A DNA stretch of 64,000 nucleotides from Candidatus Latescibacterota bacterium (GTDB lineage Bacteria > Latescibacterota > UBA2968 > UBA8231): NCBI GenBank assembly GCA_965208105.1, contig OZ242318.1, positions 1,984,001-2,048,000 of the forward strand, given 5' to 3'. The translations under genes were made by a program, and so were the position numbers. Shown here piece after piece: positions 25,575 through 63,812 of the stretch (the stretch's first letter is position 1; each line of letters begins with the position of its first letter). The notes beneath the pieces were generated by a model, which saw only the letters and a list, made by a program, of their open reading frames with translations, ran no database searches and was not told the origin of the DNA.

Positions 25575-25660
25575 ACCTCCGGCCGGTCGGGAGCCCCGAG
25601 ATTCAGGAGGGGCTGCCGGAAGCCAAGGCCCGTATGCGCGGAGGCCAGGTGAATGTGGAA
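25575..25660 (-). repeat. Highly degenerate attC remnant
   Basis: CTGCCGGAAGCCAAGGCCCGTATGCGCGG resembles TTGCCGAGGGCCAAGGCGCGTAGCGCCG at 41885; cores lost. Confidence 0.35.
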
Positions 25661-25679
25661 GAAGACGTGCGGACCAGGT

Positions 25680-26450
25680 CTATACTGCAAGGGAATCGCA
25701 GTTCTCTCTCAGCCACTTGTTCTCTTTTTCCAGTTCCGCAAGGTCACCGCGTTGGTAGAAGATGGACCATGGGTGGAGTCCCTGCCTGCCCAGGGTATCG
25801 ATCCTGCGGCATTCTTCCAATTGCAGATCGCTCAAGGTGTCCAGGATTGCTCTGGTCTCCGTGCCATAGGTGTCAGCAAGAACCATCAGCCTGGCCCTGA
25901 GATCTGGCTTGGCGGGAAATCCAGCTTTTTTCCAGTGGTCTTCGCCGCGGAGAGGCACCGCGTGCCAGGCAAACTGACTGACATCGCAGAGAGGATGGCC
26001 TGGTTCGGCAAAGTCCCAGTCGATTATTCCATTTAAGGATTGCCCTTCCCAGACAGTATTCCAGGGTCCAAGGTCCCCGTGTCGGATGATCATTCCCGGC
26101 CTCCAGGCGATATGAGGAACATGCCATTCCACATTCTCCGGTGGCTCGAAGTCTCTCACCGCATGGTGATACCTGCTCAGGAAACGCGCGACCTCGGAGA
26201 GCCCCTTTTCCTCCAGCATCACCTGCGGCCAAGGTCGCAGAGCCACCTTCCCCGGGATGAACGATAGCACCTCTCTTCCGAGCTCGTCGAATCCAAGGAC
26301 GCGAGGAGCTCCTGAAAAGCCAACTTCCTCCAGGTAGCGCAGCAAGGAATGGACGGCCGGGGTCCACCTATGGACAGGCCTGCGCACGGTGTCTCCAATC
26401 CGCGCAACGGAATTGACACAGCCTTGGGCGGATTCACCTTCCTGTACCAT
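25680..26450 (-). CDS. APH-family phosphotransferase
   Basis: GAPRVLGFD, IRHGDLGPWN, IIDWDFA. Confidence 0.85.
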   Translation of the reverse strand: MVQEGESAQGCVNSVARIGDTVRRPVHRWTPAVHSLLRYLEEVGFSGAPRVLGFDELGREVLSFIPGKVALRPWPQVMLEEKGLSEVARFLSRYHHAVRDFEPPENVEWHVPHIAWRPGMIIRHGDLGPWNTVWEGQSLNGIIDWDFAEPGHPLCDVSQFAWHAVPLRGEDHWKKAGFPAKPDLRARLMVLADTYGTETRAILDTLSDLQLEECRRIDTLGRQGLHPWSIFYQRGDLAELEKENKWLRENCDSLAV

Positions 26451-26548
26451 CTTCAGATCCTCTCAAGCCACATTGCGGTTGACCTGTTTCCTGGCCGCAT
26501 ACCTTCCAACCCCCACCGCGTTGCGAGTCCAAACCCACCGGTCATTTC

Positions 26549-26634
26549 CGGTAATGTTGTCCCCTCTTGCGAACCCGCCTCAGCGGATTGGACCGAAGCC
26601 CCTTGGGCCTGAGCCGCAAGCCGACGTGTTACGT
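26549..26634 (-). repeat. attC-like site (core TAAT)
   Basis: GTAATGTT..TTGCG AACCCGC..GCGGATT..CGCAA..ACGTGTTA. Confidence 0.65.
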
Positions 26635-26645
26635 GCTGGTGCGGA

Positions 26646-27236
26646 TCACGACCTGGCAATCTCAGGTAATTCGAGTCTGAGAATGCCGCAAAACCTGAAC
26701 GATTTGCTCCTGCTCTCGAGGAAATCCTCGCCGAAAACCAGGGACCCGAGGGCCCGCATGACGCCAGCGTGGGTCACCACCAGGACTCCTCCAGTTTCAG
26801 CCAGGCTTCTGACGGCTTTGAGGCCACGTTCCACTCTTGCCATGAAGTCGTCGATACGCTCAGCTCCTGGGATTTCTGCAGGATTCACCAATCCGGTGTC
26901 CTGGTCAAAGGCATCCGGATACCGTTCAGCTTGTTGTTGCTGCGTCAGACCCTGAAAGTCCCCCTCGTGTCTTTCGATCAGGTCGTCCGACAAACGTAAA
27001 TCGGGAATGCCCAGCAGGCGGGATAGGATCTCCGCTGTCTGAATTGCGCGGCCGAAAGAAGAGCTGAGAATCGCGGCAAGATTTTCTCGTTCGAGTTCCT
27101 TGGCAAGTTGATGCACCTGGCCGATGCCAACATCGGTCAGCGGTGAATCCAACTGACCTTGCGAAAGTCCCTGGCGCTTCCACTCCGTCTCACCATGCCT
27201 CACACATATGATGCTATTGCCAAATGCTGCCATCAT
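26646..27236 (-). CDS. Histidine phosphatase (phosphoglycerate mutase family)
   Basis: VRHGETEW, RAIQTA, VVTHAG. Confidence 0.87.
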   Translation of the reverse strand: MMAAFGNSIICVRHGETEWKRQGLSQGQLDSPLTDVGIGQVHQLAKELERENLAAILSSSFGRAIQTAEILSRLLGIPDLRLSDDLIERHEGDFQGLTQQQQAERYPDAFDQDTGLVNPAEIPGAERIDDFMARVERGLKAVRSLAETGGVLVVTHAGVMRALGSLVFGEDFLESRSKSFRFCGILRLELPEIARS

Positions 27237-27281
27237 CGATCCAGGTTACAGAATCGGAGACCAGTTTACCGGCGCTTACAA

Positions 27282-27370
27282 AAAACCATTGCCGGTTTGC
27301 GTACCCGCGAAGCGGGTTGCCGAAGACCGAGGCGCGAACAGCGCCGCAGCGCAAGAACCCGCTGATATGC
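27282..27370 (-). repeat. attC-like site with both cores mutated
   Basis: TTGCG ACCCGCGAAGCGGGT TGCCGAAG..GGCGC..GCGCC GCAGCGCAA..GCTGATA. Confidence 0.6.
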
Positions 27371-27454
27371 GGTGCGGGCTTCACTCCGACAGATGGAAGT
27401 TAACCTGCCTTCAGCTGCGCCGGTTGCGGATCGGCTGCAAGGCTTGTCCTCGCC

Positions 27455-28447
27455 TCAATAGTCTACGCCGCGCACCCCGTCGAACACTCTACCCAGCGTA
27501 TCCAGCCGGGAATGGAGGTCCGGTGGAAGAGGGCCCATAGCTGCGCAACCGACATTTTCCTCAAGTTGTTCCACCGTCGCCGCGCCAGGGATCACGGTGG
27601 CCACATCCATGTCCGCCAGCAGGAATCGAGTCGCAAGCGCGGCCAGACTGATCCCGGTCTCTCGATGGATCGAGTAAAGCTCTGCAAATCGAGTCCGAAG
27701 GTCGTCGTCCATCCAATCGGGAGGATGCTCCAGCCACTCTTCACAAGGAACGGCAAGCAGCCCCTGCTGCAGAGGCGCTCCGAGGACCACACCCTTGCCC
27801 AGTTCGCTGGTCAGTGGCAGAAGGAACTGCCTGGCATTGCGCCAGATCAGGCTGTACTGAAACGCAACCAGCACGACCTCCACCGGGAGAGCTATCTCGC
27901 GCAGTACCTTTGCCAGGAGATGAGCGTTGTTGCCGGAAATGCCCAGATGCTTCGCCATTCCCTGCTCCCTGGCCCACCACAGGAATTGGGTCACCGGCGC
28001 CTCGCCGTAGTCGTAAACCCCGTCTGCGCTGATGTGCCGCGTCTGGCGCGGGGGGGCCTCGTCCTGCCAATACACACTCCAATCAGCCTCGTGGATGTAG
28101 AGAATGTCCACGCAATCTCGCCGCAGGGACCGCAGCGTCTGCTCGAACTGCGCCTTGAAGGCGTCCAACTCGCGGTACGGTCCGGTGCGCCAGTCCCATC
28201 GCCCGCACTTCGTCCCCAGGAGACAGGGTTCCTTCCGTCCCTGGAGAGCTTCTCCCAGGACTTCCTGAGAATTCCCGTAGAGGGGAGCAGTGTCGAAATA
28301 GTTCACTCCCAGTTCCAAAGCGCGATGGACAACGCGAATACCTTCATCGCGCGCCGTCTCTCCCTCATGGATGAAGGCCCCGCCCAGGCCAATCTCGCTA
28401 ACCTCAAGACCGGTCTTTCCCAACGCCCGTTTATTGATCACTGTCAT
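27455..28447 (-). CDS. Aldo/keto reductase
   Basis: LGKTGLEVSEIGLG, FDTAPLYG, TKCG, YIHE, VIPGA. Confidence 0.9.
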   Translation of the reverse strand: MTVINKRALGKTGLEVSEIGLGGAFIHEGETARDEGIRVVHRALELGVNYFDTAPLYGNSQEVLGEALQGRKEPCLLGTKCGRWDWRTGPYRELDAFKAQFEQTLRSLRRDCVDILYIHEADWSVYWQDEAPPRQTRHISADGVYDYGEAPVTQFLWWAREQGMAKHLGISGNNAHLLAKVLREIALPVEVVLVAFQYSLIWRNARQFLLPLTSELGKGVVLGAPLQQGLLAVPCEEWLEHPPDWMDDDLRTRFAELYSIHRETGISLAALATRFLLADMDVATVIPGAATVEQLEENVGCAAMGPLPPDLHSRLDTLGRVFDGVRGVDY

Positions 28448-28569
28448 ACCTCAAGTAGACTTCGAATGAAATTCCGGCTGGCCTTTGCGCACTCCAGAGG
28501 CGTCTTGCCTGCCCATTGGGCCTTCTGCCCGGCCGTGTTGCAGCCGGAGTGATGGTTTTCGCATTCCAT

Positions 28570-30495
28570 CTAGTTAGCTCCGGGAGTTGGCGCTCCATGC
28601 CGCTTCAAGAGCTCGACGACCTCACCATGCCCTGCTCGCGCGGCCACTGCCACTGGCTGCGCCCAGGGCGCCCCGGCCAGATTCGGATCCGCTCCCTTCT
28701 CCAGGAGAAATTCGGCCATCTTGCAGCTCCCGAATCGGGCTGCCCACCCAAGCGGCGTGGCGTCATGGTGAAGCTCGATGGCGTCGATGTCGGCACCGAA
28801 CCCCAATGCCAGCTCCGCTCTCTTCATGTTTTCATCTTCATCCTCGTATCGACCTTCGGGATTGCAGTTGTGCCGGCTGGCGGCCAGACGATGCAATGGG
28901 GCAATTCGCAGGAAGTTAGGAAGATTCGGATCCAATCCACGCTCGAGAAGCGTTCGAAAAATGGCAATGTCGCCTTTCCAGAGATTTCCCTGGCACACCG
29001 TGACTGTCGATGGCATCGGGATACCGAGCTCCAACAGTCGGTCCAAAAGCTCAGCGTCATCGCGAATCCGAACGAACAGCTCACTCATCAATGGATCGTT
29101 CGGGTTGCGCTCGAACATCTGTTGCAGCCGCTCGGTGTACGTCCAGTCCTGATCCTCTCCGCCGTATCTGTACAACAGCTCCAGCATCTTGCGGTTTTTC
29201 CCCTGAGCTCGATTCCTTGTCGCTGTCGCGGCCGAGGTGGCTGTGCCATGGGAATCCTGACCCTCGGCATTGGGATCCGCGCCGTGTTGCAGCAGGAGCT
29301 CGGCGACATCGTAGTGGTCGTACCATACCGCAGCCCACAGGGCGAATCCCCAACGCCCCTCACGACAGGTCGCGTCTGCGCCGTTATCGATCAAAAAACG
29401 CAACATCTCGAGATATCCATGCTGGGCGGCGGCAGCCTTTGGCGTCATGCCCATGGGGGACTCGTAATTTACCAGGTCAGGGTTGGCACTCACCATCGCC
29501 TTGACCCTCTCGATGTCGTTCCTTGCCACCGCAACCTCGATGGTGTATTCGGCCCCCTTTGACAACAGCAGGTCCACCAACTCCATGTCCTCGGAGCCAT
29601 GAATGTATATGTCGTTCCAGATGGCGTGATCGATGGGGCGCATCCGCGCTTTTCCATCCGCTTGATTGAGGTCGGCGCCCCGGTCGATCAGCAGCTCGAT
29701 CAATTCAACATCCCGGTTGACGACCGCCTTGTGCAGCGGTGAGATCCCTTGACGGTCCGATTGATCGACAAGCTCCGGGTGGGCCGCCAGCAACTCGGCA
29801 ACGCGCACGCCGTCCGCCTGTGCCACGGCATCGTGAAACCGTTCGGACCCCTCGTCATAGCGGTGCAGCTGCGCAACCGCCCGCCGAATGGCGCTTGCCG
29901 TCTCCTGGTGGCCGCGATCTTCGGCCAGTTTGAGGATCGTATCCTTCCCGAACCAGGAAGTAGCGGTCGGTCTGGCCCCGCGCTCGAGCAACACTTGAAC
30001 CGTTCGCGTGTGTCCTTCCTGCGTTGCGAAAACGATCGGAGAGCAGCCGAAAAACTCAGCGTTAACGAGACTTGAATCGGCGTCGAGGAGGGATTCAAGT
30101 GATTTCGTGTTCCCTGCCATGGCCGCGACGATTAACGGCCAAACCTCTTTGGAAAACGAATCGTGGCATCCATGAGTCACCAGGAACGGATCCTCGATCA
30201 GGAGCCGCGCCTTCTCCTTGCTGCTCAACCCCACCGCCGGCCGCCGTTTGGCGATTCGATCTACGAGCTTCTGCCAGCTTGCAAGACCGTATTCGCGCGC
30301 GATGACCAGCTGGGCGTCGCTCAGCTTGAACGAGACCCTGGCAATCTCATCGTCGGTGGCTTCAAGAAGCTTCGGATGACTCTCGCGAATGCGCTGGAAG
30401 GCATCCGGAGCCGCATCCCTCCAATGCTTTCGCAGGGTCTTGGCGAGGGTTTTCTGCTGTTGGAGACTGGGGACTACGGGCAGGCGGCGGCGCAT
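28570..30495 (-). CDS. Ankyrin-repeat protein with N-terminal LPxxPSL...AQLVIAREYG..SW domain
   Basis: Multiple ankyrin repeats (SPLHKAV, TPLGWAARFG); ATG 30495 with AGGAGG RBS. Confidence 0.87.
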   Translation of the reverse strand: MRRRLPVVPSLQQQKTLAKTLRKHWRDAAPDAFQRIRESHPKLLEATDDEIARVSFKLSDAQLVIAREYGLASWQKLVDRIAKRRPAVGLSSKEKARLLIEDPFLVTHGCHDSFSKEVWPLIVAAMAGNTKSLESLLDADSSLVNAEFFGCSPIVFATQEGHTRTVQVLLERGARPTATSWFGKDTILKLAEDRGHQETASAIRRAVAQLHRYDEGSERFHDAVAQADGVRVAELLAAHPELVDQSDRQGISPLHKAVVNRDVELIELLIDRGADLNQADGKARMRPIDHAIWNDIYIHGSEDMELVDLLLSKGAEYTIEVAVARNDIERVKAMVSANPDLVNYESPMGMTPKAAAAQHGYLEMLRFLIDNGADATCREGRWGFALWAAVWYDHYDVAELLLQHGADPNAEGQDSHGTATSAATATRNRAQGKNRKMLELLYRYGGEDQDWTYTERLQQMFERNPNDPLMSELFVRIRDDAELLDRLLELGIPMPSTVTVCQGNLWKGDIAIFRTLLERGLDPNLPNFLRIAPLHRLAASRHNCNPEGRYEDEDENMKRAELALGFGADIDAIELHHDATPLGWAARFGSCKMAEFLLEKGADPNLAGAPWAQPVAVAARAGHGEVVELLKRHGAPTPGAN

Positions 30496-30630
30496 GGCGG
30501 ACCTCCTTTCGACGGATTGCCTGGCCCGCATACAGGCAGAAAGAAGGTTCCCCAAGGATAAAACGAAGAGCGAAGTTCAGGTGAACGTGGTTCTTCCCGC
30601 GGGTTGGGTGCACCCTGATGTGCAGAGCAT

Positions 30631-30659
30631 AACCTAAGTCCTGTCAAAGGCTATGTCAA
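30631..30659 (-). promoter_or_regulatory. Putative sigma-70 promoter of the ankyrin gene
   Basis: TTGACA-17 bp-TAGGTT on the minus strand, ~135 nt upstream of the ATG. Confidence 0.4.
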
Positions 30660-30777
30660 TTGTGCTCGGCGACCGCTTTGGAAGTGGCTTAGCCAGATGT
30701 CCACTTGCAAGCATGAACCTCATCTCTCTCGTCCTGTTAAGTGAAGTCTGACCTCGGAAATGCTCACTTGCCCAGCA

Positions 30778-31425
30778 TTACGAAACAATAAAGGGATCAT
30801 CCAAATCATTGTTGTCGAGTACTATTGAAGCCCGTTTTCTGGGTTGGCAGTTCTGGATGTATATTTTCTGGCCTTCTATGTAACGCCTATTCTGCTCTGC
30901 ATCAGGATCCGGATTGCCCTCTCCACGAAGAGCGCATCTGGGAATCGAGTTTTCGAAATCCACGTCCAAGTAGATTGAATAGTCCCAGAGGTCCCTGAGT
31001 TCAGCCCTGTGCAAGAAAATCCCGTCCAACAAGAGAATCGACTTCGGCTCCGCGTACAGTTCAGGCGACTCAACACAGGTATCGATCCTGTGATCGAACG
31101 CCTTAGTATGAAAACGCCCGGACCCTCCAGGACCTAGAGGGTTGAGAAGTAAGCCGAAAAGTTGATCGTAGTTGTACGAGTCTTCGAAAAAACCTGACGG
31201 CGAATATTTCCCCTGACGGTACCTGATTGCCCTAGGATTGTGAAAGAAATCTACTGACGCACGGATGATCGGCCGACTTTCAATGGTGTGGGCAAGCTCA
31301 TCCGCGAATGTTGTCTTGCCGGCACCATCTACACCGTCGATGGCGACTCGTACCACATTGCCAGGGAAGATCGCGCAGATTTCCGCGGCGATTTGCTCGA
31401 GGATCACACCCCGCTTTGATGGCAT
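30778..31425 (-). CDS. Uridine-kinase-like P-loop protein
   Basis: AIDGVDGAGKTT, SVDFFH, LLDGIFL, RRYIEGQ. Confidence 0.82.
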   Translation of the reverse strand: MPSKRGVILEQIAAEICAIFPGNVVRVAIDGVDGAGKTTFADELAHTIESRPIIRASVDFFHNPRAIRYRQGKYSPSGFFEDSYNYDQLFGLLLNPLGPGGSGRFHTKAFDHRIDTCVESPELYAEPKSILLLDGIFLHRAELRDLWDYSIYLDVDFENSIPRCALRGEGNPDPDAEQNRRYIEGQKIYIQNCQPRKRASIVLDNNDLDDPFIVS

Positions 31426-31453
31426 GATATACGTAAAACCTTAGTCGCATTTC

Positions 31454-31470
31454 CCATAACGTGCTACCTG
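31454..31470 (-). repeat. Collapsed attC (interior deleted)
   Basis: CGCATTTCCCATAAC-GT-GCTACCTG: both cores juxtaposed across ACGT. Confidence 0.45.
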
Positions 31471-32159
31471 TCTGCGACGTGGGCCTGTCCTTCACGTTCG
31501 AACGTGATGCTTCCCTCGTCGGCGTCCAAGATGACTTCGACGCCTAGCGGAATTGTCAGGCAGCTTCTTCCGTGTCCAGACGGCAGCCCTGACGCGATGG
31601 GGATTCCAAATTCAGAAAGCAGCTCGGAGACACTTCCCCATAGCATGTGCAGGTTCGAACACTCAAACATGTCGGAGAACACCATGCCGCGAACGCCGTC
31701 TAGCTTTCCGGCATTCCTGAGGTGTGTCACCATCGCGTCAATTTGCCTAGCATCCTTTCCCGCATCCTCAAGAAACAAAATCCGCTGATCCGTCTCAATT
31801 TCATGATCTGTACCTATCGACTCGACCAGCCGCGTGAGGTTGCCCCCCACAATTTCGCCCTGGGCCATGCCCTCGCGGAGACATGTGAGTCCGTTGATCG
31901 GGCGAAACTCCCAATAGAAAAGATGATCGTGCAAGGAGACCTGAGACCCTGTTTTCTCTGGATACTCGAGCATTCTAGCTGTAGCGATGTTTGGGCCGTG
32001 GAAAACAACAAGGTCACAAGCACGTTGTAAAAAAAGGAGAAGACTGGTTACGTCACTGTATCCAACGACTGCCTTACGGACATCCCTTATTTCTGGCTTT
32101 CCCACATGGAACAGATGTGAGCCGACTTTAATTTCATGCAGCGATGAGAGGTCAGGCAT
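31464..32159 (-). pseudogene. LD-carboxypeptidase (S66 family), N-terminally truncated
   Basis: GYSDVTSL, FHGP, GGNL, LFLED, SGHG present; N-terminal RGGYG region absent. Confidence 0.7.
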
Positions 32160-32200
32160 GTCAGCTGTGTTCCGTACGATTTGCTCGACTTGAGCATGTC

Positions 32201-32285
32201 ACATAATGTTTTCACCGGGCCCGAACCGCGAAGCTGTTGCGCGAAGGCGCGTCAGCGCCGAAGCCCGGGCACGGTTGTGTTATAT
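32201..32285 (-). repeat. attC site (core TAAT)
   Basis: TAATGTTTTCACCGGGCCCG..two hairpins..CGGGCACGG TTGTGTTA. Confidence 0.8.
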
Positions 32286-32309
32286 GCCCTGCCTCCGTCG
32301 CACCGAGGA

Positions 32310-32912
32310 TCAATTGCTCTCCTCCAGTCGATGCAAGTGGTAGGCATTGTTGTATTGGACAAGGGTCCAGATTCCCTCAGACAGAGACCATTCGGTAATG
32401 CCTGTATTCAAAGGTTGCAGCCAGACCTTGGTCTCGGTTCCTGAAAAAAGCCTTTTCGTTGAGCCGGCGATGAATCCGCCATGAGTCACTGCTACTACTG
32501 TTTGTCCGGCGAATCGTTGCGAGTAGGACAACAAGGCCGAATGTGCTCTGTCAGACAGCTCCTGGAAGGTTTCGGCGCCCGGAGGCGTGGAATCTCCATA
32601 CTTTGCCTGGATCTGAGAGGTGGTGAGACCCTCGGCTTGTCCCATTCGCAGCTCACATAGATCTGGATCCTCCATTACGCATTGTGCCGGCAATACATCC
32701 AACAGAATCTTGGCGGTCTGACGCGCTCGCGCAATAGTGCTGCTGAGCAGTGTTTGACAATCGGAGAATTCGCCTGACTCTCGCAGATGTGTCGCAAGCG
32801 CATGAACTTGCTCCCTGCCCAGGTCTGTGAGGCCTGAGCACGTGCGCTCACCCGAGTTCGTCTCGGTAAGCTGGTCTTTGCCTTGTCCGTGCCGGACGAG
32901 TACTATCCGCAT
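32310..32912 (-). CDS. Histidine phosphatase family
   Basis: LVRHGQG, RARQTA, AVTHGG, NTGITE. Confidence 0.87.
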   Translation of the reverse strand: MRIVLVRHGQGKDQLTETNSGERTCSGLTDLGREQVHALATHLRESGEFSDCQTLLSSTIARARQTAKILLDVLPAQCVMEDPDLCELRMGQAEGLTTSQIQAKYGDSTPPGAETFQELSDRAHSALLSYSQRFAGQTVVAVTHGGFIAGSTKRLFSGTETKVWLQPLNTGITEWSLSEGIWTLVQYNNAYHLHRLEESN

Positions 32913-32945
32913 TGGATGCTAGCTTCACGAAGATTCTGGCATGAC

Positions 32946-33015
32946 ATATAACGTCTCCACGGTTGCCAACAGGCCAAGCCACCGAAGGCGGCGCGGCGGG
33001 AGCCGGTTGTTTGAG
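32946..33015 (-). repeat. attC site, short degenerate form
   Basis: TAACGTCTCCACGGTTGCC..GCCACCGAAGGCGGC..CCGGTTGTTT. Confidence 0.6.
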
Positions 33016-33026
33016 GAGGTGAAAAC

Positions 33027-33914: not shown

Positions 33915-33948
33915 GTGGATTTCTGTCCTTTGTCTACGCTTCCATGTC

Positions 33949-34034
33949 CTCTAACGTTATGCCGATATGCGAACCCGCGTCAGCGGGGTTGAGCGATGAC
34001 CGCCAGGCCAAAGCCGGGCACGGTCGTGTTGACC
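33949..34034 (-). repeat. attC site
   Basis: TAACGTTATGCCG..AACCCGC..GCGGGGTT..CGGGCACGGTCGTGTTG. Confidence 0.75.
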
Positions 34035-34069
34035 GATGGCGGCACCCTCAACATGTCTCCACAACCGTT

Positions 34070-55087: not shown

Positions 55088-55169
55088 CTATAACGTTTCC
55101 GTGCCCCCGAACCGCGCAGCGGTTGGGCGAAGGGTCGAACGGCCCGGAGCCGGGGGCACGGTGTTATAG
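55088..55169 (-). repeat. attC site
   Basis: CCGTGCCCCCG..CGGGGGCACGG TGTTA. Confidence 0.9.
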
Positions 55170-55215
55170 GATGTGCCAGCCGAGCTTGGAGTACACACGG
55201 CTCTGAGTTCCACCA

Positions 55216-56181: not shown

Positions 56182-56184
56182 TTC

Positions 56185-56275
56185 CTATAACGTTACGCCG
56201 ATTGCCGAACCTGCGAAGCAGGTTGCCAGATGCCAAGGCGCGACGAGCGCCGCAGGGGAAAACGAGTTGTTATGC
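56185..56275 (-). repeat. attC site
   Basis: TAAC..AACCTGCGAAGCAGGTT..GGCGCGACGAGCGCC..GTTA. Confidence 0.85.
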
Positions 56276-56287
56276 GATCGGCACTCG

Positions 56288-57373
56288 TCAAGAAGATCGA
56301 AATGGTCCTCCATATCTGACCAAAACGTGCCACAAGTATTTCAGGAGTCCGCGCACTTTCCGAGGATCACCCCAGTTGCTCCACTCAGAAGGATTTCTCC
56401 CCAGGTCCATTGCCGCAGATCCAATCACTCTTGGATCCACGCGGCCATCAATGGCCACGTGTGTGGCAAATGGCGGCATCACGGGACCCCTGAAATCGCT
56501 TGGCACCTCATCAGCTGGCAACGTGAAACCCATGTGCCAGAAACAATCGATGGAATACTCGGAACACACTTCCTCGAGAACTTCGCCGATATGTGTATTC
56601 TTGAAAGAAGGATCAACAACCATTATGTCGGCATCGGTGCGCAGACAAACGTCACCGTGAACCTGTGCCTCGATGTAGTGATTCAAATTGCGGTTGGCCT
56701 CTCGTCCAGATGGATCCTTGAAAGGTTGCTCAAGTTCAGTGAATAGATGCTCGACAAGCCTCCCAGTAGTCAGGTTCCGTTCACCTATCGCAAAATCGCT
56801 GAAGAACGCGTCTTTCATCATGGCGGCAAGTATGCCGTCGAAAGCCTTGTACGTACCATTGGAGCCCGAGTGCGATGAATCCAAGTACGTAAACGTCGTC
56901 CGAGTTGAGACCTCCGGTTTTAAGAGCAGAAAGCAGCATCCAAACCGAGGTGAAGGTCCGTCAGGATGCAACATTAGATCGAGCGCCCCGTACTTGGGCC
57001 GTTCCTCGTCGGAGGTTTCGTTATTGTGATACGCACCACCGAAGAGCCTATCTTCCCACCTGTCGCGCTCACCACCGGAATAAGCAGTTTCGCCACCGCT
57101 CGACATTTTGGTCACGAACTGGTTTCGATAGATTCCCTGTTCTAGCAACGCCTGGGCTACTGGTTTCAGGTCTGGATCTGGTCTGTCCGGATGGAAGTGC
57201 AACCCGACTCGGGCGTGAGACTTGAGCTTGGCGACAGTCTGGTCGAATCGTTCCGGGGCAATATCCGATTGGTAAAGGATGTCGGACAGCCATTTCAGCG
57301 CCCAGTCTCTTTGCTCTCGCCCACAGTGGGTGAAATGATCTAGAGCGGCTAATTGCGATTTTGTCAGATTCAT
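56288..57373 (-). CDS. DUF3626-like protein
   Basis: LHFHPDR, YRNQF, RPKYGALD, GPSPRFG, YIEAQVHG. Confidence 0.78.
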   Translation of the reverse strand: MNLTKSQLAALDHFTHCGREQRDWALKWLSDILYQSDIAPERFDQTVAKLKSHARVGLHFHPDRPDPDLKPVAQALLEQGIYRNQFVTKMSSGGETAYSGGERDRWEDRLFGGAYHNNETSDEERPKYGALDLMLHPDGPSPRFGCCFLLLKPEVSTRTTFTYLDSSHSGSNGTYKAFDGILAAMMKDAFFSDFAIGERNLTTGRLVEHLFTELEQPFKDPSGREANRNLNHYIEAQVHGDVCLRTDADIMVVDPSFKNTHIGEVLEEVCSEYSIDCFWHMGFTLPADEVPSDFRGPVMPPFATHVAIDGRVDPRVIGSAAMDLGRNPSEWSNWGDPRKVRGLLKYLWHVLVRYGGPFRSS

Positions 57374-57413
57374 AGAACAATCGGTGCGGGCACTATTCAG
57401 ACTTGAACTTACC

Positions 57414-58573
57414 TAGTGCTCTGTTAAGGATTCAGGCTTGTACTTTTTCGTACATGTTGGTATCATGGGGACATATGTCCATTTTTCTGGGAGGGTCCTG
57501 CCATGTGCCTCCATGCTCGAACACCGGATGCTGCCGAATCGAAAGAACTGGGCCGATGGCTGAAGCGGCCACGCAATGCCGTACAGATGCGACGAGGGCA
57601 ATTGATCTCCCTCAGTGCCCAGGGTATGCGGGTCCAGGAGCTGTCGGCGACGCTGCATCTGCACGAGGAATACATCCGCTCCCTGGTCCGACGATACAAC
57701 GAGGAAGGGCTGGCGTCGCTTCGCACGCGAGCCCACCCGGGGCGCACCCCAGCGCTGACGCCCGAAGACGAGTCCGTGGTGGTGGAGATCGCCAAGATGC
57801 CCCCTCGGGCTTTCGGCCAACCCTTCAACCAGTGGTCGCTGCGCAAGCTGACCGACTGTCTGGTCGGGCGCAAGATGATCCCCAAGGTCTCGCACGTGAC
57901 CATCGCCAAGGTCTTGGACCGGCATAAGGTCACCTACCAACGTACCCGCACCTGGAAGGAGTCGAAGGATCCGGATTTCTCCTCGAAAAAAAACGCATCG
58001 ACCGCCTCTACCGGCGTGCGCCGAAGGACTCGGTCGTAGTCTGCTTCGACGAAATGGGGCCCGTGCAGATCAAGCCCCATGCCGGCTCCTCCTGGGCGCC
58101 GCAGAAGCACCCGGTGCGGCACCGAGCCACCTACACCCGGCACGCCGGGGTCAGCTATTTCTTCGGCGCCTACAACGTCCACGAGGACGTCCTGTGGATG
58201 CATCACAAGCGAAAGAAGCACGCCTCGGAGGTGCTCACTTTCCTCAAGGCCATCCGGCACCGCTACCGCAAGGCCCAACGCATCTACCTCGTTCTGGACA
58301 ATTTGTCGACGCACGCGACCCCAAAGATTCGGCAATGGTGTCGGCAGCATCGAGTCTCCCTCGTCTTCACCGCTACCAACGCCTCCTGGATGAACCGTCT
58401 CGAATGCCATCTGACCGCCGCCCACTACTTCGTCATCAAGAACAGCGACCCAAGGGACCATCGAGACATCGGCCAGCGCATGCAGGAATACCTCGTATGG
58501 AGAAATCGAAACCAGGACGATGCCAAGCTCGCCAAAATACAAAATTCAATGCCCACTCTTTAACAGCGCACTA
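57414..58573 (+). mobile_element. IS630-family insertion sequence
   Basis: IRs TAGTGCTCTGTTAAGGA / revcomp TAGTGCGCTGTTAAAGA; TA duplication within CTAG; two overlapping ORFs. Confidence 0.92.
57503..58563 (+). CDS. IS630 transposase (ORFA HTH + ORFB DDE, joined by a probable -1 frameshift at A8, 57986-57993)
   Basis: WSLRKL HTH; frameshifted KKRIDRLY..VCFDEMGP..LDNLSTH..SWMNRLE. Confidence 0.88.
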
Positions 58574-58583
58574 GTGCCCGTTC

Positions 58584-58665
58584 GCATAACGTTTCCGCCG
58601 TGCCCGAACCGCGCAAGCGGTTGCGCGAAGGGCGTAGCCCGAAGCCGGGCACGGACGTGTTATCT
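58584..58665 (-). repeat. attC site
   Basis: Consensus type. Confidence 0.9.
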
Positions 58666-58711
58666 GACGTGCGATTCACTGCGTAGTCCACCAGGAACTT
58701 CGAGCGTGCGT

Positions 58712-59542
58712 CTATTTGGTGACCACCCAGTAGGTGTCGGTCTCGTTTTGAGATCCTATGTACGGTCCACAGTCGTGGCTCCCGTAGAGCTCCCAACGCT
58801 CAAATCCAGCTAGGCGCAGCGGCAACTGGAACTCTGCCGGATAGATCCATCGTGCCTGCATCGGTACTTTCGACGTTTCCCCACTGTGCCTGAAGGTCCA
58901 CGTATAGCTTTCTCTTTGAGATGCAAGATCGCAGCTCTTGGCGTAGCTAACCTCGATCTCTTTACCTGTCTCGGGATGAATGAATACACCGAATTCCTCC
59001 TCAGGAGGAGTGGAATCCAGGTGGAGGAGCAAGTCGCCGGTGTAAGAAGGAACGTAGAAATTCAACAACAAGCGTCCTCCAGGATGCAGACAATTGTAGA
59101 CTCTGCTCAGGCACGCGATTTGGATCGCCCGCGTCGATAGCATCATGATGGAACTGGCAGGGATCAGCACTGTTCTAAACCGGTTATCGTAGGTGAAGTC
59201 CCCGAGGTCCTGATGGGAAATTCGCGTGGCGATGTCCGCGATGCCCAGATCGATTCCTTTACCTATGAGCACGTCCAACATGGGCAAAGAAGAATCAAAC
59301 CCGAAAACATCAAATCCGTCCGCGAGCAGAGGCAGCATGATCGAGCCCGTTCCGCAAGCCGCCTCCAAAGTAGCACCTTGCGTGTCATGCAGCTGACCTC
59401 GGTAAAACGCCAATTCGTGTTGACGCTGTGCCGATCTTCCACCGCTCTCACTCCACTGGTCGTAGATCAGCGACCACCACAGGCTGTTATAGCCAATTTC
59501 GTTCTCCTGCAAGGCGGTTCCGATATTCGGTCGATCTAGCAT
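58712..59542 (-). CDS. Class I SAM methyltransferase
   Basis: LEAACGTG, FDSSLPML, LHPGGRLL. Confidence 0.85.
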   Translation of the reverse strand: MLDRPNIGTALQENEIGYNSLWWSLIYDQWSESGGRSAQRQHELAFYRGQLHDTQGATLEAACGTGSIMLPLLADGFDVFGFDSSLPMLDVLIGKGIDLGIADIATRISHQDLGDFTYDNRFRTVLIPASSIMMLSTRAIQIACLSRVYNCLHPGGRLLLNFYVPSYTGDLLLHLDSTPPEEEFGVFIHPETGKEIEVSYAKSCDLASQRESYTWTFRHSGETSKVPMQARWIYPAEFQLPLRLAGFERWELYGSHDCGPYIGSQNETDTYWVVTK

Positions 59543-59550
59543 CGCATGTC

Positions 59551-59636
59551 AGATAACGTTCTCGCCGTTGCCCGAACCGCGAATGCGGTTGCGCGAAGGC
59601 GCCTCAGCGCCGAAGCCGGGCACGGACGTGTTACCT
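59551..59636 (-). repeat. attC site
   Basis: Consensus type. Confidence 0.9.
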
Positions 59637-59681
59637 GCCGTGGCCATCCTGCGCGGATGAAAATTCCTCGTAGCACCCGAT

Positions 59682-60479
59682 TCACACCTCTGGCTTAAAG
59701 CCTACGGCGCGACACCACGCAAAGGCCGCATAGGCATCGGGAGATACCGACCACTCCTCCCAGGCTTCGGTTATTGCTTTCAACTCGTCATCTGTTGCAA
59801 GTGCGTGTTCTTGCGCGTTCTGAACAAAGGCTCCGTCCTGGAAGTAGTGCACTTGTCTGGTCCCAAACGTCTTCACTTTGTCCTCAGTTCCATAGCAGAG
59901 ATACTTGGAAGTGACAGTCACATCTTTAAAACTCGCGCCATTCAATAGACCGCGAAGTTCGCGGCCGCAATATGGACCGCCTGTGCCTTTGAGAGTCCAG
60001 AGCTGCTCTCGAATTGAATAGCTGCGTCGAAGTAAGGACGAACGTGGTCCGCCGACGATGAAACCACCGTATTCCACGTCCGCGATTCCTAATACCCCAC
60101 CGGGTTTGAGGACGCGCTTCACCTCCAGGAGTGCGTCTTGTGGGCGATCCAGGGTCTCGACCACCGAGTGGCAGAGGCAGGCATCGAAGCTATTGTCTGC
60201 GAAATCGAGTCCGTAGACATCACCGACGCAAAAGTCAACGTTTCCAATCGCGTGGACGCGAGCATACGTTTCAGCATCTCCGAAACCATCATCACTATGA
60301 TCAACACCGACTACGCTACGCACCTTCTCGGCCACACCCAAAGCAATGCTTCCGCCACCGCATCCTACGTCCAGGACTTTGAACTCTGGTGCCAAGTGTG
60401 GAAACAGGAACTCGGCATAATCGTCCGCGTTCCGGCCGGCCATGTAGTCTTCAAAGCTCATGCCAGAGGTGTCTTCCAA
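59682..60479 (-). CDS. UbiE-like SAM methyltransferase
   Basis: VLDVGCGGG, FADNSFD, RVLKPGG. Confidence 0.87.
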   Translation of the reverse strand: MEDTSGMSFEDYMAGRNADDYAEFLFPHLAPEFKVLDVGCGGGSIALGVAEKVRSVVGVDHSDDGFGDAETYARVHAIGNVDFCVGDVYGLDFADNSFDACLCHSVVETLDRPQDALLEVKRVLKPGGVLGIADVEYGGFIVGGPRSSLLRRSYSIREQLWTLKGTGGPYCGRELRGLLNGASFKDVTVTSKYLCYGTEDKVKTFGTRQVHYFQDGAFVQNAQEHALATDDELKAITEAWEEWSVSPDAYAAFAWCRAVGFKPEV

Positions 60480-60495
60480 TGCGGAAAGCCATGGC

Positions 60496-60587
60496 AGGTA
60501 ACGCTTTCCGGTTGCCGAACTCGCGAAGCGAGTTGCCGGAGGCCCAGACGCCCAGAGGGCGGCGCAGCGGCAAACGTGTTGTTACAT
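60496..60587 (-). repeat. attC site
   Basis: TAAC..TTGCCG AACTCGCGAAGCGAGTT..CGGCAA..GTTA. Confidence 0.88.
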
Positions 60588-60661
60588 GAAGTGCAATCGT
60601 GGAGTGTGGCCAGGACGGCCACCTCCATTCCCCTGAGTTGCGAGGCCTGTGGCTGCAACAC

Positions 60662-60922
60662 TCAGGCCGCAGCAGTCTGCCTCACTTCCCATCCTGGAAA
60701 CACCAGAACTGCCGGATGGCACTGCAGTGCTTGAGCCAAAACTTTCGCACGTTCTACTCCCAGCTGCACCCGATCGTTCTCAATGGCAGAAATAGTGGAT
60801 TGAGGAATCCCAGTTCGGCGTGACAGCTCGTTCTGGCTCAATTCCTGCAGCTCTCTGACTATCCGTACTGACTCACCCACGGACACTTCAATCCGCTTCC
60901 TGGCTGGACGGTAGTTCTTCAT
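60662..60922 (-). CDS. XRE-HTH antitoxin (HigA-like)
   Basis: RELQELSQNELSRRTGIPQSTISAIE. Confidence 0.85.
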   Translation of the reverse strand: MKNYRPARKRIEVSVGESVRIVRELQELSQNELSRRTGIPQSTISAIENDRVQLGVERAKVLAQALQCHPAVLVFPGWEVRQTAAA

Positions 60923-60923
60923 T

Positions 60924-61205
60924 TCACTTTCTCCGATAATCGTGGACTGTAATATCCACTACCTTCACAAGGATCTCGCTTGCAACAACCTCATAAATGA
61001 CTCGAAAATGAAGACCAAGCCTCGATGATCTGTGGCCCTTCCATTCGCCCCGCAGGGCTTCGTCGTGAAACCCCTTGATGAGCCTCAGGCCAGCGGGGCC
61101 GGACACCGCAACGATGTCCTTCCACTTCTCGTAGCGTTTGAGAACCTCGTCAGGCATGGTTCGGAGTCTTTTCTCGACTCTCCGATGCTCAAGGAGGGTC
61201 CACAT
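60924..61205 (-). CDS. RelE/HigB/YafQ-family toxin
   Basis: GFHDEALRGEWKGHRSSRL..FRVIY..HDY; toxin-first order. Confidence 0.85.
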   Translation of the reverse strand: MWTLLEHRRVEKRLRTMPDEVLKRYEKWKDIVAVSGPAGLRLIKGFHDEALRGEWKGHRSSRLGLHFRVIYEVVASEILVKVVDITVHDYRRK

Positions 61206-61212
61206 ACCAGGT

Positions 61213-61240
61213 AAGATATATACTCATTTAGATATGTCAA
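61213..61240 (-). promoter_or_regulatory. Putative promoter of the TA cassette
   Basis: TTGACA-16 bp-TATCTT, 7 nt before the ATG. Confidence 0.55.
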
Positions 61241-61286
61241 CATGGGATCGGTTCATGGGCGGCCATGGATGGCCGACCTACATTTC

Positions 61287-61383
61287 ATGTAACGTTCCGC
61301 CGGTTTGCGAAGCCCGAGCTTGTCGAGGGGTTGCCGAAGGCCGGGCGCCAAAGGCGGCGCAGCGCAACACCGCGCTGTTATAC
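61287..61383 (-). repeat. attC site (near-identical to 52655-52751)
   Basis: One internal substitution relative to 52655. Confidence 0.88.
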
Positions 61384-61968
61384 GACGGCGTGATCATCCC
61401 CGCCCTCGACGCTCCAGCATGTCTCGACCACACCGAAGTCAGGCCGAGACAGGACGATCCAAGATGGCAGCCCCAACTGTTTCCACAAAGCAAACGGTTC
61501 CAGCGCTGAAATGCGGCTCACGAAAAGGCTCAGCACCGTCCCGTGAGTTATGAGAGCCAAATTCGCCTGTGGAAATCGGTCTGATAGTTCATACACGGCC
61601 TTCGAAAATCTGTTGTACGCTGTATCCGCCGTCTCCTCGCCGAAAATAAATTCAGTTGGTCGAGAGAAAAAACGACCGATCGACTCCTCAAAGCGCTCCT
61701 TTTCCAGGAAGCCAACGTTGCATCGTTCATGTTCTTGCAACCCATCAACGACTTCTACCGGCGTTTTCAGAAAGCGCGCTGAGATTTCAGCTGTTTCTAC
61801 GGCTTTAGGTTCGGTGCTACTGACAATCACATCGAGATCATATTGGACCAATTTCTCAGCGAGTATCTGAGAACGGACGCGGCCTTCCCGCGACAGATGC
61901 CATTCATTGGCTGGGACCGTAGAATCGATCTCCGGTAGCGAATGCTTCACCAAAACGATCATCTGCAT
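61378..61968 (-). CDS. Histidine phosphatase-like protein (KHS instead of RHG)
   Basis: LVKHS, SSTEPKAVETA, ITHGT; stop lies inside the attC core. Confidence 0.8.
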   Translation of the reverse strand: MQMIVLVKHSLPEIDSTVPANEWHLSREGRVRSQILAEKLVQYDLDVIVSSTEPKAVETAEISARFLKTPVEVVDGLQEHERCNVGFLEKERFEESIGRFFSRPTEFIFGEETADTAYNRFSKAVYELSDRFPQANLALITHGTVLSLFVSRISALEPFALWKQLGLPSWIVLSRPDFGVVETCWSVEGGDDHAVV

Positions 61969-62002
61969 CTTCTCGGTTCTTCTTCTCGTCTAATCTGCTG
62001 TC

Positions 62003-62084
62003 GTATAACGTTTTCGTGCCTCCGAGCCGCGCTGCGGTTGGGCGAAAGACCGAATGGCCTGAAGCCGGGGGCACGGTGTTATAG
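62003..62084 (-). repeat. attC site; part of the duplicated cassette
   Basis: Matches 54134-54215. Confidence 0.88.
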
Positions 62085-62119
62085 GCCGTGACAGCCTGCA
62101 AGCAATCAATTAGGAGCGG

Positions 62120-62920
62120 CTATACCACCTGTATTTTCGATGCAAATCTCTGAAATCGATCAAGTGTTATATTCGCCCAACCGACAACAGTCTCAGAGGG
62201 TTGCTCAGTTTGCAATTCATTTAGCGCAGAGACTTCGAAATATGAACCATAGATAGCGCCACAGATATAATAATCGCGCACGGGATCTGTAGACTCAACC
62301 GAAAGCCTACCCATGTAGGATTCGATCAGCGATTCTATGTTCAAAAGTTTTGGATACGGCGTAACTTGCGCTCCGGTCCGGAGGACCAGATCGGCAAACG
62401 GAGAACTCAACCAGGATAGGCCCAAGTCGAACGCGACGATCTTCTTGCCTAACATGCCTAGATTGGAATTGGCCGGATCACCATGCGAGACGCAGGTGCA
62501 CCGGCTTGCAACCATTTTCTGAAACTCGCGGAATATGTACGAGGCAGAGGGTAAGGCACCGAAGTCACTGCGATAAAGCCGCGAATTAGGGTCCCCCGCT
62601 TCGGCAACGAGCTGCGACATGACCGTCCAGTATGATGAAAAGTAGCCAAGATTGCACGGCGGATACTCTACCACGCTAACAGAATTGAACTCCACGACCC
62701 AATGGAGAACGCGTTCGAAACCAGCTATTTCGGACGTGTCAAACGGCAAGGGCGCGGCCTTTTCCAGGACTATCTTCCGCCTACAGCCGTCTTCAATCAC
62801 GTCAAGCAACTGCACAACAGGCGCACCCGCATCGTTGAGGGCTTTATACTTCTCGACCTCTGAAAACCCGGGTCTCTCTGGCTTGATCACGTAGGTGCCG
62901 CAGTCTTCAACTTGAGACAT
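62120..62920 (-). CDS. APH-like phosphotransferase (copy 2)
   Basis: Differs from 54251..55051 at 2 residues (position 5 Q/E, last residue L/V). Confidence 0.72.
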   Translation of the reverse strand: MSQVEDCGTYVIKPERPGFSEVEKYKALNDAGAPVVQLLDVIEDGCRRKIVLEKAAPLPFDTSEIAGFERVLHWVVEFNSVSVVEYPPCNLGYFSSYWTVMSQLVAEAGDPNSRLYRSDFGALPSASYIFREFQKMVASRCTCVSHGDPANSNLGMLGKKIVAFDLGLSWLSSPFADLVLRTGAQVTPYPKLLNIESLIESYMGRLSVESTDPVRDYYICGAIYGSYFEVSALNELQTEQPSETVVGWANITLDRFQRFASKIQVV

Positions 62921-62956
62921 TTGATCGGCTTAGTACACAGCGTCATCTGGCATGGC

Positions 62957-63039
62957 CTATAACGTTTCAGTGCCCCCGAACCGCGAAGCGGTTGGGCGAA
63001 GGGCCGAATGGCCCGTAGCCGGGCACGGACGTGTTATAG
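62957..63039 (-). repeat. attC site
   Basis: TAAC..GTGCCC..AACCGCGAAGCGGTT..GGGCCGAATGGCCC..GGGCAC..GTTA. Confidence 0.9.
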
Positions 63040-63073
63040 GAAGTGCCAAACCTCTTGCCTTGGCACAGCAATC

Positions 63074-63739
63074 TCAATTCCTCGCACATCCTCGCCAGAC
63101 GGCTTTGAAAGGCTCGCCTGTGATTCTATCGGGTACGAATAGGTGCTCGATCTGAAGATGCGTCCACTCTTGAAAGTGACCTTCAAGCTCGGATTGGGAG
63201 AAGAAGTGAACTGTTTGGCCACCCGCTTCAAGCACCCGGTTTGGCCCTAGCTTCTTGGATACGCGCCTTCGGCGTGCTCGAAGCTCAAGGTCATCAACTG
63301 AGTTCACGTGAAAGATGAAAATCCCTGAGGGGCGCAGAATGCGCCTTACCTCCTGAATGACGGTCATCGTCGTCATGTCGTCGAACATGTGAAGCGCCAC
63401 GTTGGAAAAAACGGCATCGAAGCACTGTTTGGGAAAGGGAAGCCCTCTGGCCATATCAGCCCTCACAAAATCGGCCCCGGGGATCCGCTTTGAACGGGCG
63501 ATGTCTAGGGCCTTTTCAGAAAAATCCAGGCCCACGGCTTGGAGGCCTAACGTTGCAAGACGACGTACGTCGTTCCCAGTCCCACATCCCAGATCCAGAA
63601 CCTTTCTGCATCTACACGCGGCCAGAGTGCCCAAAAAAGGATCTATCCAGAGCCCGCCCCAATTCAGATCACCTTCGCGTTCGAAGCGGTCATTCCAAAC
63701 CGCGGAATCCCCGTAGAAAGTATCATCGCTTGGGGTCAA
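63074..63739 (-). CDS. Class I SAM methyltransferase
   Basis: VLDLGCGTG, FDAVFSNVALH, ILRPSG. Confidence 0.87.
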   Translation of the reverse strand: MTPSDDTFYGDSAVWNDRFEREGDLNWGGLWIDPFLGTLAACRCRKVLDLGCGTGNDVRRLATLGLQAVGLDFSEKALDIARSKRIPGADFVRADMARGLPFPKQCFDAVFSNVALHMFDDMTTMTVIQEVRRILRPSGIFIFHVNSVDDLELRARRRRVSKKLGPNRVLEAGGQTVHFFSQSELEGHFQEWTHLQIEHLFVPDRITGEPFKAVWRGCARN

Positions 63740-63749
63740 TTGGCATTTC

Positions 63750-63812
63750 CTATAACGTTATGCCGGTTGCCGAAGGCGCGAATGCGCCGCAGCGGTAACC
63801 GTGCTGTTAGCC
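63750..63812 (-). repeat. attC site, minimal 63-bp form
   Basis: TAAC..CGGTTGCCG AA GGCGCGAATGCGCC GCAG CGGTAACCG..GTTA. Confidence 0.87.

Follow-up and report, generated by a model that had tools for sequence, protein, structure and literature searches.

A large integron-type cassette array in a sponge-associated Latescibacterota genome, headed by an IntI-like recombinase without the IntI-specific domain

A 64,000-nucleotide stretch of a Candidatus Latescibacterota genome (the window, G000:C1:1984001-2048000; the genome, G000, is a single 4.85-Mb contig) carries a long series of genes followed by palindromic, attC-like sites, and raises the question of which recombinase assembled it. A first-pass annotation had described an integron-like array of superintegron scale with no integrase in view, in a lineage that it rightly called poorly studied, and had placed the integrase gene and attI beyond base 64000. 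In the DNA to the right of the window (L008, in which position n lies n nucleotides (nt) beyond base 64000) the array runs on to an attI and a tyrosine recombinase gene, and the encoded enzyme is IntI-like, without the ~40-residue IntI-specific (I2) domain. We regard it as nearly certain that the array is real and of integron type. From sequence comparison, it is probably a large sedentary array for which the short, I2-less recombinase lineage would supply the cognate integrase. The host is a sponge-associated member of the Latescibacterota; in public data, the recombinase region turns up in 20 rows from 10 studies, labeled as metagenomes of sponge or marine origin.

The window contains 16 matches to the bare pattern TAAC-N40-70-GTTA, where 4.81 would be expected; no shuffle out of 100 had as many, and 14 of the 16 matches lie on one strand at 36-64 kb. 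An ungapped test of arm complementarity was positive for only 16 of 340 genome-wide TAAC...GTTA pairs because the arms contain bulges, and covariance models were therefore used instead. RNAalifold on a MAFFT alignment returned only 5 pairs, so the structure of the first model, R1, which was built from 14 window sites, was set by hand. The second model, R2, is broader, and part of its training set comes from other phyla. Site counts by either model are given at an expectation value (E) below 0.1 unless stated. R1 recovers 33 minus-strand sites in the window and R2 recovers 36, both over the span 26546-63815 (Table 1), and R1 finds nothing credible in positions 1-26000. The annotation had counted at least 36 co-oriented sites over more than 38 kb, beginning at 25575. 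The number of sites holds. The start does not: no model matches at 25575, and the outermost supported site is 26546-26637. By eye, the segment 25575-25650 looks like the interior of a long-form site, but no model matches it. Beyond the window, 12 further minus-strand sites at E<0.01 and 2 marginal ones extend to L008 12603, and the whole array comprises ~50 sites over ~50 kb, of which ~13 kb lies right of base 64000. Genome-wide, R1 (150 candidates scored) gives 54 matches at E<=0.01 that are clustered: this array accounts for 34, the region 2.74-2.75 Mb for 8 and the region 1.04-1.08 Mb for 5, with a few elsewhere. The second array of the genome has 13 sites, all on a single strand.

The relation of the sites to the genes is that of integron cassettes, as had been proposed. 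In 48 of the 49 inter-site intervals of the whole array the longest open reading frame (ORF) lies on the strand of the sites and fills most of the interval. Six ORF stops that had been reported to coincide with a site core (35109, 36963, 42859, 45875, 53392 and 61378) all fall on the TAA of a TAAC, which reads TAAT at 35109. The 6 nt on the 5' side of TAAC are complementary to the 6 nt on the 3' side of the upstream site's GTTA at a mean of 4.60 of 6 positions (at least 5 in 34 of 48), compared with 2.73/6 for the site's own GTTA flank and 2.72/6 for the skip-one neighbor. The outer arm of each site is thus complementary to the first bases of its own cassette, a hallmark of circles inserted between the G and the TT of GTT. 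This match between an R'' flank and the 3' flank of the upstream neighbor points to insertion of a circle with one full palindrome, the crossover lying inside the 3' GTT. Within the sites, TAAC and GTTA are near-invariant while the inner stem varies between cassettes yet stays paired. In long-form sites both strands fold better than shuffles (z -3.7 to -4.5). The R box is 10 bp long (TC-NNN-TAAC / GTTA-NNN-GA), with a conserved A after TAAC, AAC before GTTA and, by a simple arm alignment, about three additional bases on the R' arm.

The head of the array lies where its polarity had been taken to point. After L008 12603 come the last cassette, which encodes a 121-residue pyrophosphatase-family protein, a gap of ~260 bp, and a tyrosine recombinase gene on the opposite strand. 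The gene starts at L008 13252, that is 13,252 nt beyond base 64000, reads divergently from the cassettes and is separated from the crossover by ~200 nt. For the crossover, the R'' flank of the first attC predicts a 10-mer (TTCATC+TAAC), which is present at L008 13041-13050. Aligned with the congeneric genome G001, L008 is homologous (91.9% over 1208 bp) from 13047, the T of TAAC, on through attI and the gene; the 17 kb left of the crossover in G001 has no match to the G000 array, and the cassette content is wholly different. From this TAAC onward, an attI block of ~150 bp is kept in five genomes of four genera (G000, G001, G016, G014 and G010 C2), and to its left the sequences of the five are unrelated. 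The block contains a perfect 10-bp inverted repeat, TATGCGAACC-ATT-GGTTCGCATA, 8 nt from the crossover. A scan of L008 12900-13400 for sigma-70 promoters and terminators gave no consensus match, although such a scan may not suit this phylum.

The neighborhood of the platform is less constant. A PhyH-family dioxygenase gene adjoins the recombinase gene in G000, is close to it in the congener only and lies megabases away in other genera. In G001, the counterparts of the genes left of the G000 array (19641-24888) lie on the opposite side of the recombinase (1,219,365-1,234,182), and therefore array and platform switched neighbors within one genus. Of the three further attI-like copies in G000, the one at 1.0795-1.0802 Mb is accompanied by the same first cassette at ~100% identity, and the one at 1.0468 Mb looks as if the start of an attC had been joined to attI.

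The annotation had anticipated a divergent recombinase with or without the IntI-specific insertion; the insertion is missing. The 250-residue ORF scores 210.8 bits with the integrase model TIGR02249, against a cut-off of 265, and 196 bits with the XerA-type model NF040815. Positions 2-179 and 235-315 of TIGR02249 are matched and positions 180-234 are not. The best solved relative is VchIntIA (2a3v, E 1e-42), aligned in two stretches, with residues 179-238 of IntI4 facing only 18 residues. The distance from the GKGxKDR motif to the HxLRH motif is 59 residues in the short family (SA, 7/7; array-linked, 8/8) and 99-100 residues in canonical IntI (6/6), both motifs having been detected in 72 of 119 rows. 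In an AlphaFold (AF2) model of the intact G001 protein (mean predicted local distance difference test score, pLDDT, 82.8) a short hairpin and no helix occupies the I2 position, and in a fold comparison 2a3v ranks first and archaeal XerA next. Homologues carry PF13495 and PF00589, and R147, K172, H237, R240, H263 and Y272 are invariant in 26 sequences. Identity is 34-39% to canonical IntI, 25-35% to Xer and 25-29% to the Xer-like genes of G000 itself. Orthologues are intact or near-intact in G001 (92%), G016 (90%) and G014 (82%), and omega among the intact orthologues is 0.07-0.10, which denotes purifying selection. The family is very large, with 43-60% identity across phyla; a tblastn search of plasmids returned relatives at 40-47% identity only.

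We then considered how regularly this recombinase and such arrays occur together. Within the Latescibacterota, arrays adjoin the recombinase in all five contexts examined, G000 included, and in each of the others R1 detects co-oriented sites that lie to the attI side of the recombinase gene (4 in G001, 5 in G016, 4 in G014 and 12 in G010 C2). Canonical IntI, taken as a TIGR02249 score over the cut-off, is found neither in the 4.85 Mb of G000 nor in G001, G016, G014 or G010. It is present in 8 of 41 genomes of the same family, one copy being 53.5% identical to IntI1. The ~18-kb flanks of four canonical IntI genes (L118-L121, from G008, G021, G026 and G019) contain no R-type site; with filters off, R1 gives one match at E 0.38 and R2 none. 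More distant short recombinases, 54-58% identical, occur in L027 (G010 C1, 17122-19033) and L026 (G008, 17617-19817), each followed on the same strand by a single gene (GNAT and APH-like, respectively) and one attC-like site, which is the co-oriented architecture of other phyla.

The same pairing appears outside the phylum. We collected 80 recombinase loci from named genomes of other phyla. R1, trained on window sites only, gives 27 matches in 10 of the 80 loci, and all 27 lie on the recombinase strand downstream of the gene; the positive loci include Desulfitobacterium, Saccharibacillus, Paenibacillus, a metagenome-assembled genome of Gemmatimonadaceae, and Thermodesulfobacterium. With R2, 49 of 49 matches, in 14 of the 80 loci, have this placement; among the remaining loci, many end within 2 kb of the gene. 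In Bacillota, Gemmatimonadota, Spirochaetota and Thermodesulfobacteriota, members of the short recombinase family immediately precede attC-like arrays. Named carriers include Desulfitobacterium sp. Sab5, Saccharibacillus kuerlensis DSM 22868 and Paenibacillus sp. NFR01. Across six of these arrays, flank complementarity is 5.47/6 (at least 5 in 29 of 32) and the longest ORF is co-oriented in 36 of 38 intervals. The attI 10-mer predicted from the first site is present in eight of nine arrays, 87-219 nt after the recombinase stop, and four of five other-phylum array genomes have no canonical IntI. In a class 1 array of 4 cassettes, used as a comparison, R2 has no match at E<=10.

Some members of the family have other neighbors. 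In L068 (10829-12010), L072 (10819-12021) and L066 (12004-13119) a protein of ~390-400 residues directly follows the recombinase, with a Cys-rich N-terminus that we take to be typical of IS91-family transposases. In Halonatronum saccharophilum (L036, 10867-10931) the recombinase stop is immediately followed by a perfect 32-bp palindrome containing TTAACGACAT/ATGTCGTTAA, whose arm occurs a second time; the 10-kb flank has no R2 site.

In a tree of 119 rows, nine of the ten array-linked rows and the entire Latescibacterota clade fall together in a 48-row clade with support 95. Canonical IntI forms a clade of its own, and the short clade lies outside it. The methods place the two differently: a quick IQ-TREE run places IntI within the short family on a weakly supported backbone, FastTree makes IntI the sister of the short family with support 91, and an approximately unbiased (AU) test does not reject a single clade of short recombinases and IntI (p=0.368).

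These data suggest how the array may have formed. Promoter-less cassettes, each with one gene or one toxin-antitoxin pair and an imperfect-palindrome attC-like site, would have been inserted singly, as circles, at attI next to the divergent tyrosine recombinase gene, with the crossover in the GTT at the 3' end of the site. The enzyme acting on the arrays would belong to the short lineage, a close kin of integron integrases and distinct from canonical IntI. We infer that the short recombinase is the catalyst and that the sites are recognized as folded single strands.

Several observations weigh against the short recombinase as the cognate integrase. The extra domain has been described as necessary for attC recombination (Ghaly 2022 preprint) and as necessary or an innovation toward single-strand recombination (IntegronFinder 2.0 preprint; Escudero 2016, 2020). 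The G000 gene itself has a premature TAA at codon 58, and the stop-bearing stretch is matched without differences by a run X15 contig that may come from the same sample. Three other G000 arrays (1.0468, 1.0802 and 2.7513 Mb) have an attI-like head and no recombinase gene, and therefore arrays persist without one. Both recombinase types occur together in G008, G023 and G042. Outside the phylum, some of the sites recovered by R2 had also been in its training set; L036, L053 and L066 have no site match in a 10-kb flank; a Bacteroidota clade has no arrays in 14 members with adequate flank; and one subclade adjoins putative IS91-type transposases (assigned by motif), again with no arrays. The tree cannot place the short clade relative to IntI. 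As to the premature stop, omega between G000, downstream of the stop, and G001 is 0.16, and the break therefore looks recent; with this gene broken, the G000 array is probably frozen at present.

The most serious alternative accepts the short recombinase as cognate and has it act on double-stranded palindromes in the manner of Xer or Cre, not on folded single strands. We consider this unlikely, though it deserves real weight. The helix credited with the switch to single-strand substrates (Escudero 2020) is missing from the short recombinase, and the inverted repeat in attI is perfect and close to the crossover. Moreover, canonical attC sites have two or three extrahelical bases on the R''-L'' arm (Bouvier 2009), and this arrangement was not seen: in a simple arm alignment, a crude method applied to these sites alone, most sites have no more than 1 extra base on R'' but 3-4 on R', the commonest pattern being 1 and 4, respectively (13 of 49 sites). 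In favor of folded strands, stem sequence varies freely within one array while pairing is kept, which fits recognition of shape. Pairing holds in 94% of stem cells against 21-37% when the arms are slid, and 99 cells are double changes against 23.8 in shuffles, both measured on an alignment fitted to the model. The invariant A after TAAC and the C before GTTA would face each other as an A-C mismatch in the top strand but pair as G-T in the bottom strand, an asymmetry that matters in folded single strands only, and the bottom-strand G after AAC is a conserved base of canonical attC too.

A second alternative, which we find improbable, is that canonical IntI built the arrays and has been lost or acts from elsewhere, and that the short recombinase is a mere neighbor with a different role, such as an Xer-like resolvase or a component of another mobile element settled at attI. 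It draws on the presence of canonical IntI in the same bacterial family and its co-occurrence with the short type in three genomes, on the reported requirement for the extra domain, and on the relatives of the short recombinase that accompany IS91-type transposases. However, none of the four canonical IntI loci has R-type sites nearby, and canonical IntI is missing from nine of the ten array genomes examined. The adjacency recurs in two architectures and at least five phyla, with the predicted crossover beside the short gene. In addition, attI and the gene form a single conserved block at whose crossover homology breaks, and the class 1 array stays invisible to R2.

That the recombinase is a decayed canonical IntI with its extra domain deleted, and the platform a fossil, seems very improbable. 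The stop in the G000 gene and a frameshifted C-terminus in the G010 C2 orthologue would fit such decay, but the 59-residue spacing is uniform across the family in several phyla, the intact orthologues are under purifying selection, and canonical IntI forms its own clade, with support 100 in one tree and 99 in a second, the short clade lying outside. Finally, repetitive extragenic palindromic (REP) or miniature inverted-repeat transposable element (MITE) palindromes spread by another mechanism, with no cassettes at all, are scarcely credible: related sites do occur at several other places in the genome, but the matches fall into clusters of one orientation (this array has 34 of the 54, the second array 8), every site follows a same-strand gene with cassette-wise flank complementarity, each array terminates at an attI-like block, and gene order is not fixed, the G001 cassettes being completely different.

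Placed beside known systems, the array resembles canonical sedentary integrons in its platform of recombinase gene and attI, its co-oriented and mostly single-gene, promoter-less cassettes, and its imperfect palindromes with an AAC...GTT core, a crossover at the 3' GTT and a compensated variable stem. Toxin-antitoxin cassettes, duplicated cassettes and turnover between close relatives are likewise shared. It differs in that the recombinase has no IntI-specific domain and falls below the TIGR02249 cut-off, in the 10-bp R box (TC-NNN-TAAC), and, by the simple arm alignment, in extra bases that lie mainly on the R' arm and not on R''-L''; the model of G000 sites does not match class 1 attC sites. 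Xanthomonas genomes carry chromosomal integrons with an inactivated intI, and these are similar in being large chromosomal arrays whose integrase gene is broken in some genomes; there intI is canonical, whereas here the intact form itself is without the domain. Xer and XerA, and the tyrosine recombinases beside IS91, share the two-domain fold without insertion, the NF040815 score and XerA as next-best fold. Unlike Xer, the gene heads an array in five genomes, has no dif-type single site and has different neighbors between genera; unlike the IS91-side enzymes, the G000 recombinase has no IS91 genes beside it. By the IntegronFinder definition the array has no IntI and, if its sites were detected, would be filed as a cluster of attC sites lacking integron integrases (CALIN), yet it has ~50 sites headed by a conserved IntI-like recombinase. 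The reverse-orientation integrons of Spirochaetota, and archaeal integrons in which attI closely follows intI (Ghaly 2022 preprint), resemble the other-phylum loci, where the recombinase is co-oriented and attI lies 87-219 nt after its stop; they have IntI with the extra domain, and the Latescibacterota gene differs also in being divergent from its cassettes.

In Cury 2016, 50 non-IntI recombinases lie near attC sites, and members of the present clade may be among them; only four fall between IntI and Xer, none of these having as many as three attC sites, and such proteins were concluded not to be IntI. The same paper reports no complete integrons in Firmicutes, where CALINs occur, and finds CALINs unexpectedly abundant in genomes without IntI. 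The list of integron-bearing phyla in a 2021 review omits Latescibacterota. In the open-access literature, taken without supplements, we found no account of arrays headed by a recombinase without the IntI domain and none of integrons in Latescibacterota.

The cassette gene set is typical of chromosomal integrons. A scan of 54 cassette ORFs identified 8 S-adenosylmethionine (SAM)-dependent methyltransferases, 5 GNAT proteins and 3 histidine phosphatases (His_Phos_1), with two each of GrpB, ankyrin, APH, ANT(2'')-family and alpha/beta hydrolase proteins. By blastn, the array contains second copies of three of its own cassettes (95.7-97.8% identity), and one cassette recurs in the second array at 98.6%. 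The insertion sequence (IS) at 57412-58578 has at least 8 other copies in the genome at 99.5-100% identity, one of them inside the second array. Contigs of other sponge or marine metagenomes (runs X1, X2 and X5) match single L008 cassettes at 95-100%; over L008 1-14400 these contigs stop or switch partner inside attC-like sites, and one X1 contig connects L008 6839 to 12546 across two sites. Among the 15 joints listed, most have a short side of less than 60 letters inside the repeated sites and may reflect the repeats. Several L008 cassettes have zero depth in these three runs, but a lack of coverage does not demonstrate absence. The duplicated cassettes, the unrelated cassettes of G001 and the one X1 joint may be traces of excision and insertion.

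At the far end of the array, 26.6-32.2 kb, five minus-strand ORFs are accompanied by one marginal site only (27277-27373). The ORFs of 26646-32159 comprise a histidine phosphatase and ORFs of 330, 661, 215 and 231 residues, and the 661-residue ORF has a paralogue at 4.34 Mb that is 77.7% identical. They may be old cassettes with decayed sites. As to the assembly, G000 and its closed or near-closed relatives score only ~91-94% completeness with 4-12% contamination. These scores suggest that the marker sets fit this lineage poorly.

Table 1. Positions of the attC-like sites and other array features in window coordinates
Feature	Position	Strand	Support or remark
In-window part of cassette array	26546..64000	-	36 attC-like sites; continues ~13 kb to attI and recombinase gene
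attC-like site, outermost supported, R' degenerate (ATTA)	26546..26637	-	R2 34.5 bits, E 2e-5
Marginal decayed attC-like site	27277..27373	-	R1 12.8 bits, E 1.1; no R2 match at E<=1
attC-like site	32198..32288	-	R2 49.9 bits
attC-like site, weak	32943..33020	-	R2 18 bits, E 0.074
attC-like site	33946..34037	-	R2 31.2 bits
attC-like site; stop of ORF 35109-36017 in R'' (TAAT)	35037..35117	-	R2 25.8 bits
attC-like site, weak	36052..36137	-	R1 47.7 bits; R2 18.5 bits
attC-like site, long form, R2 only	36709..36841	-	R2 39.1 bits, E 2e-6
attC-like site; stop of ORF 36963-37796 in TAAC	36880..36971	-	R2 52.3 bits
attC-like site, weak	37840..37936	-	R2 21.1 bits, E 0.016
attC-like site	39442..39529	-	R2 46.3 bits
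attC-like site	40520..40619	-	R2 46.2 bits
attC-like site	41181..41268	-	R2 51.7 bits
attC-like site, weak; divides two-ORF interval	41882..41973	-	R2 18.1 bits, E 0.072
attC-like site; stop of ORF 42859-43560 in TAAC	42776..42867	-	R2 55.9 bits
attC-like site	43672..43756	-	R2 39.1 bits
attC-like site	44667..44755	-	R2 66.3 bits; folded
attC-like site; stop of short ORF 45875-46075 in TAAC	45795..45883	-	R2 57 bits
attC-like site, short form	46335..46410	-	R2 47.9 bits
attC-like site	47464..47551	-	R2 62.1 bits
Toxin-antitoxin cassette: HigB-like toxin 47859-48215 and HTH_3 antitoxin 47588-47908	47588..48215	-	PF05015 E 1.3e-15; PF01381 E 2.7e-13
attC-like site	48309..48402	-	R2 52 bits
attC-like site	49527..49615	-	R2 57.7 bits
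attC-like site, degenerate 3' end	50055..50140	-	R2 39.1 bits
Cassette shared with second array of genome, 98.6% identity	50063-50822	-	blastn
attC-like site	50809..50896	-	R2 46.7 bits
attC-like site	51793..51888	-	R2 36.2 bits
attC-like site, long form	52652..52754	-	R2 51.2 bits
attC-like site; stop of ORF 53392-54084 in TAAC	53312..53400	-	R2 57 bits
Cassette with duplicate beyond window, 97.8% identity	53308-54181	-	blastn
attC-like site	54131..54218	-	R2 49.6 bits
Cassette duplicated in array; other copy 62006-63048, 97.6% identical	54137..55178	-	blastn
attC-like site	55085..55172	-	R2 65.7 bits
attC-like site	56182..56278	-	R2 49.4 bits
Insertion sequence ~1.16 kb, IS630-like (HTH_32/HTH_29), inside cassette	57412..58578	+	Pfam; blastn
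attC-like site	58581..58668	-	R2 69.8 bits
attC-like site	59548..59639	-	R2 57.3 bits
Cassette with duplicate beyond window, 95.7% identity	59542-60529	-	blastn
attC-like site	60493..60590	-	R2 39.9 bits
attC-like site, long form; stop of ORF 61378-61968 in TAAC	61284..61386	-	R2 52.5 bits
attC-like site	62000..62087	-	R2 56 bits
attC-like site	62954..63042	-	R2 62.3 bits; folded
attC-like site, short form, last in window	63747..63815	-	R2 53.8 bits

The IntI-specific domain is currently used to define integron integrases and to find integrons. We propose tentatively, at somewhat below an even chance, that a second, I2-less integrase lineage, sister or ancestral to IntI, builds attC-type arrays in at least five phyla including Bacillota, that it explains part of the otherwise unexplained CALINs, and that I2 is dispensable at attC-like hairpins. 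If this is true, integron surveys would under-count, with such arrays filed as orphan CALINs, and the reported lack of complete integrons in Firmicutes may be due in part to the definition. Cassettes would then recombine at attC-like hairpins without the domain regarded as the key innovation of integrons, and natural enzymes, including some from cultured bacteria, would allow the origin of integrons to be tested. For the organism itself, the array enlarges what is known of the genes of a sponge-associated candidate phylum by ~50 cassettes, which encode small-molecule-modifying enzymes and toxin-antitoxin pairs.

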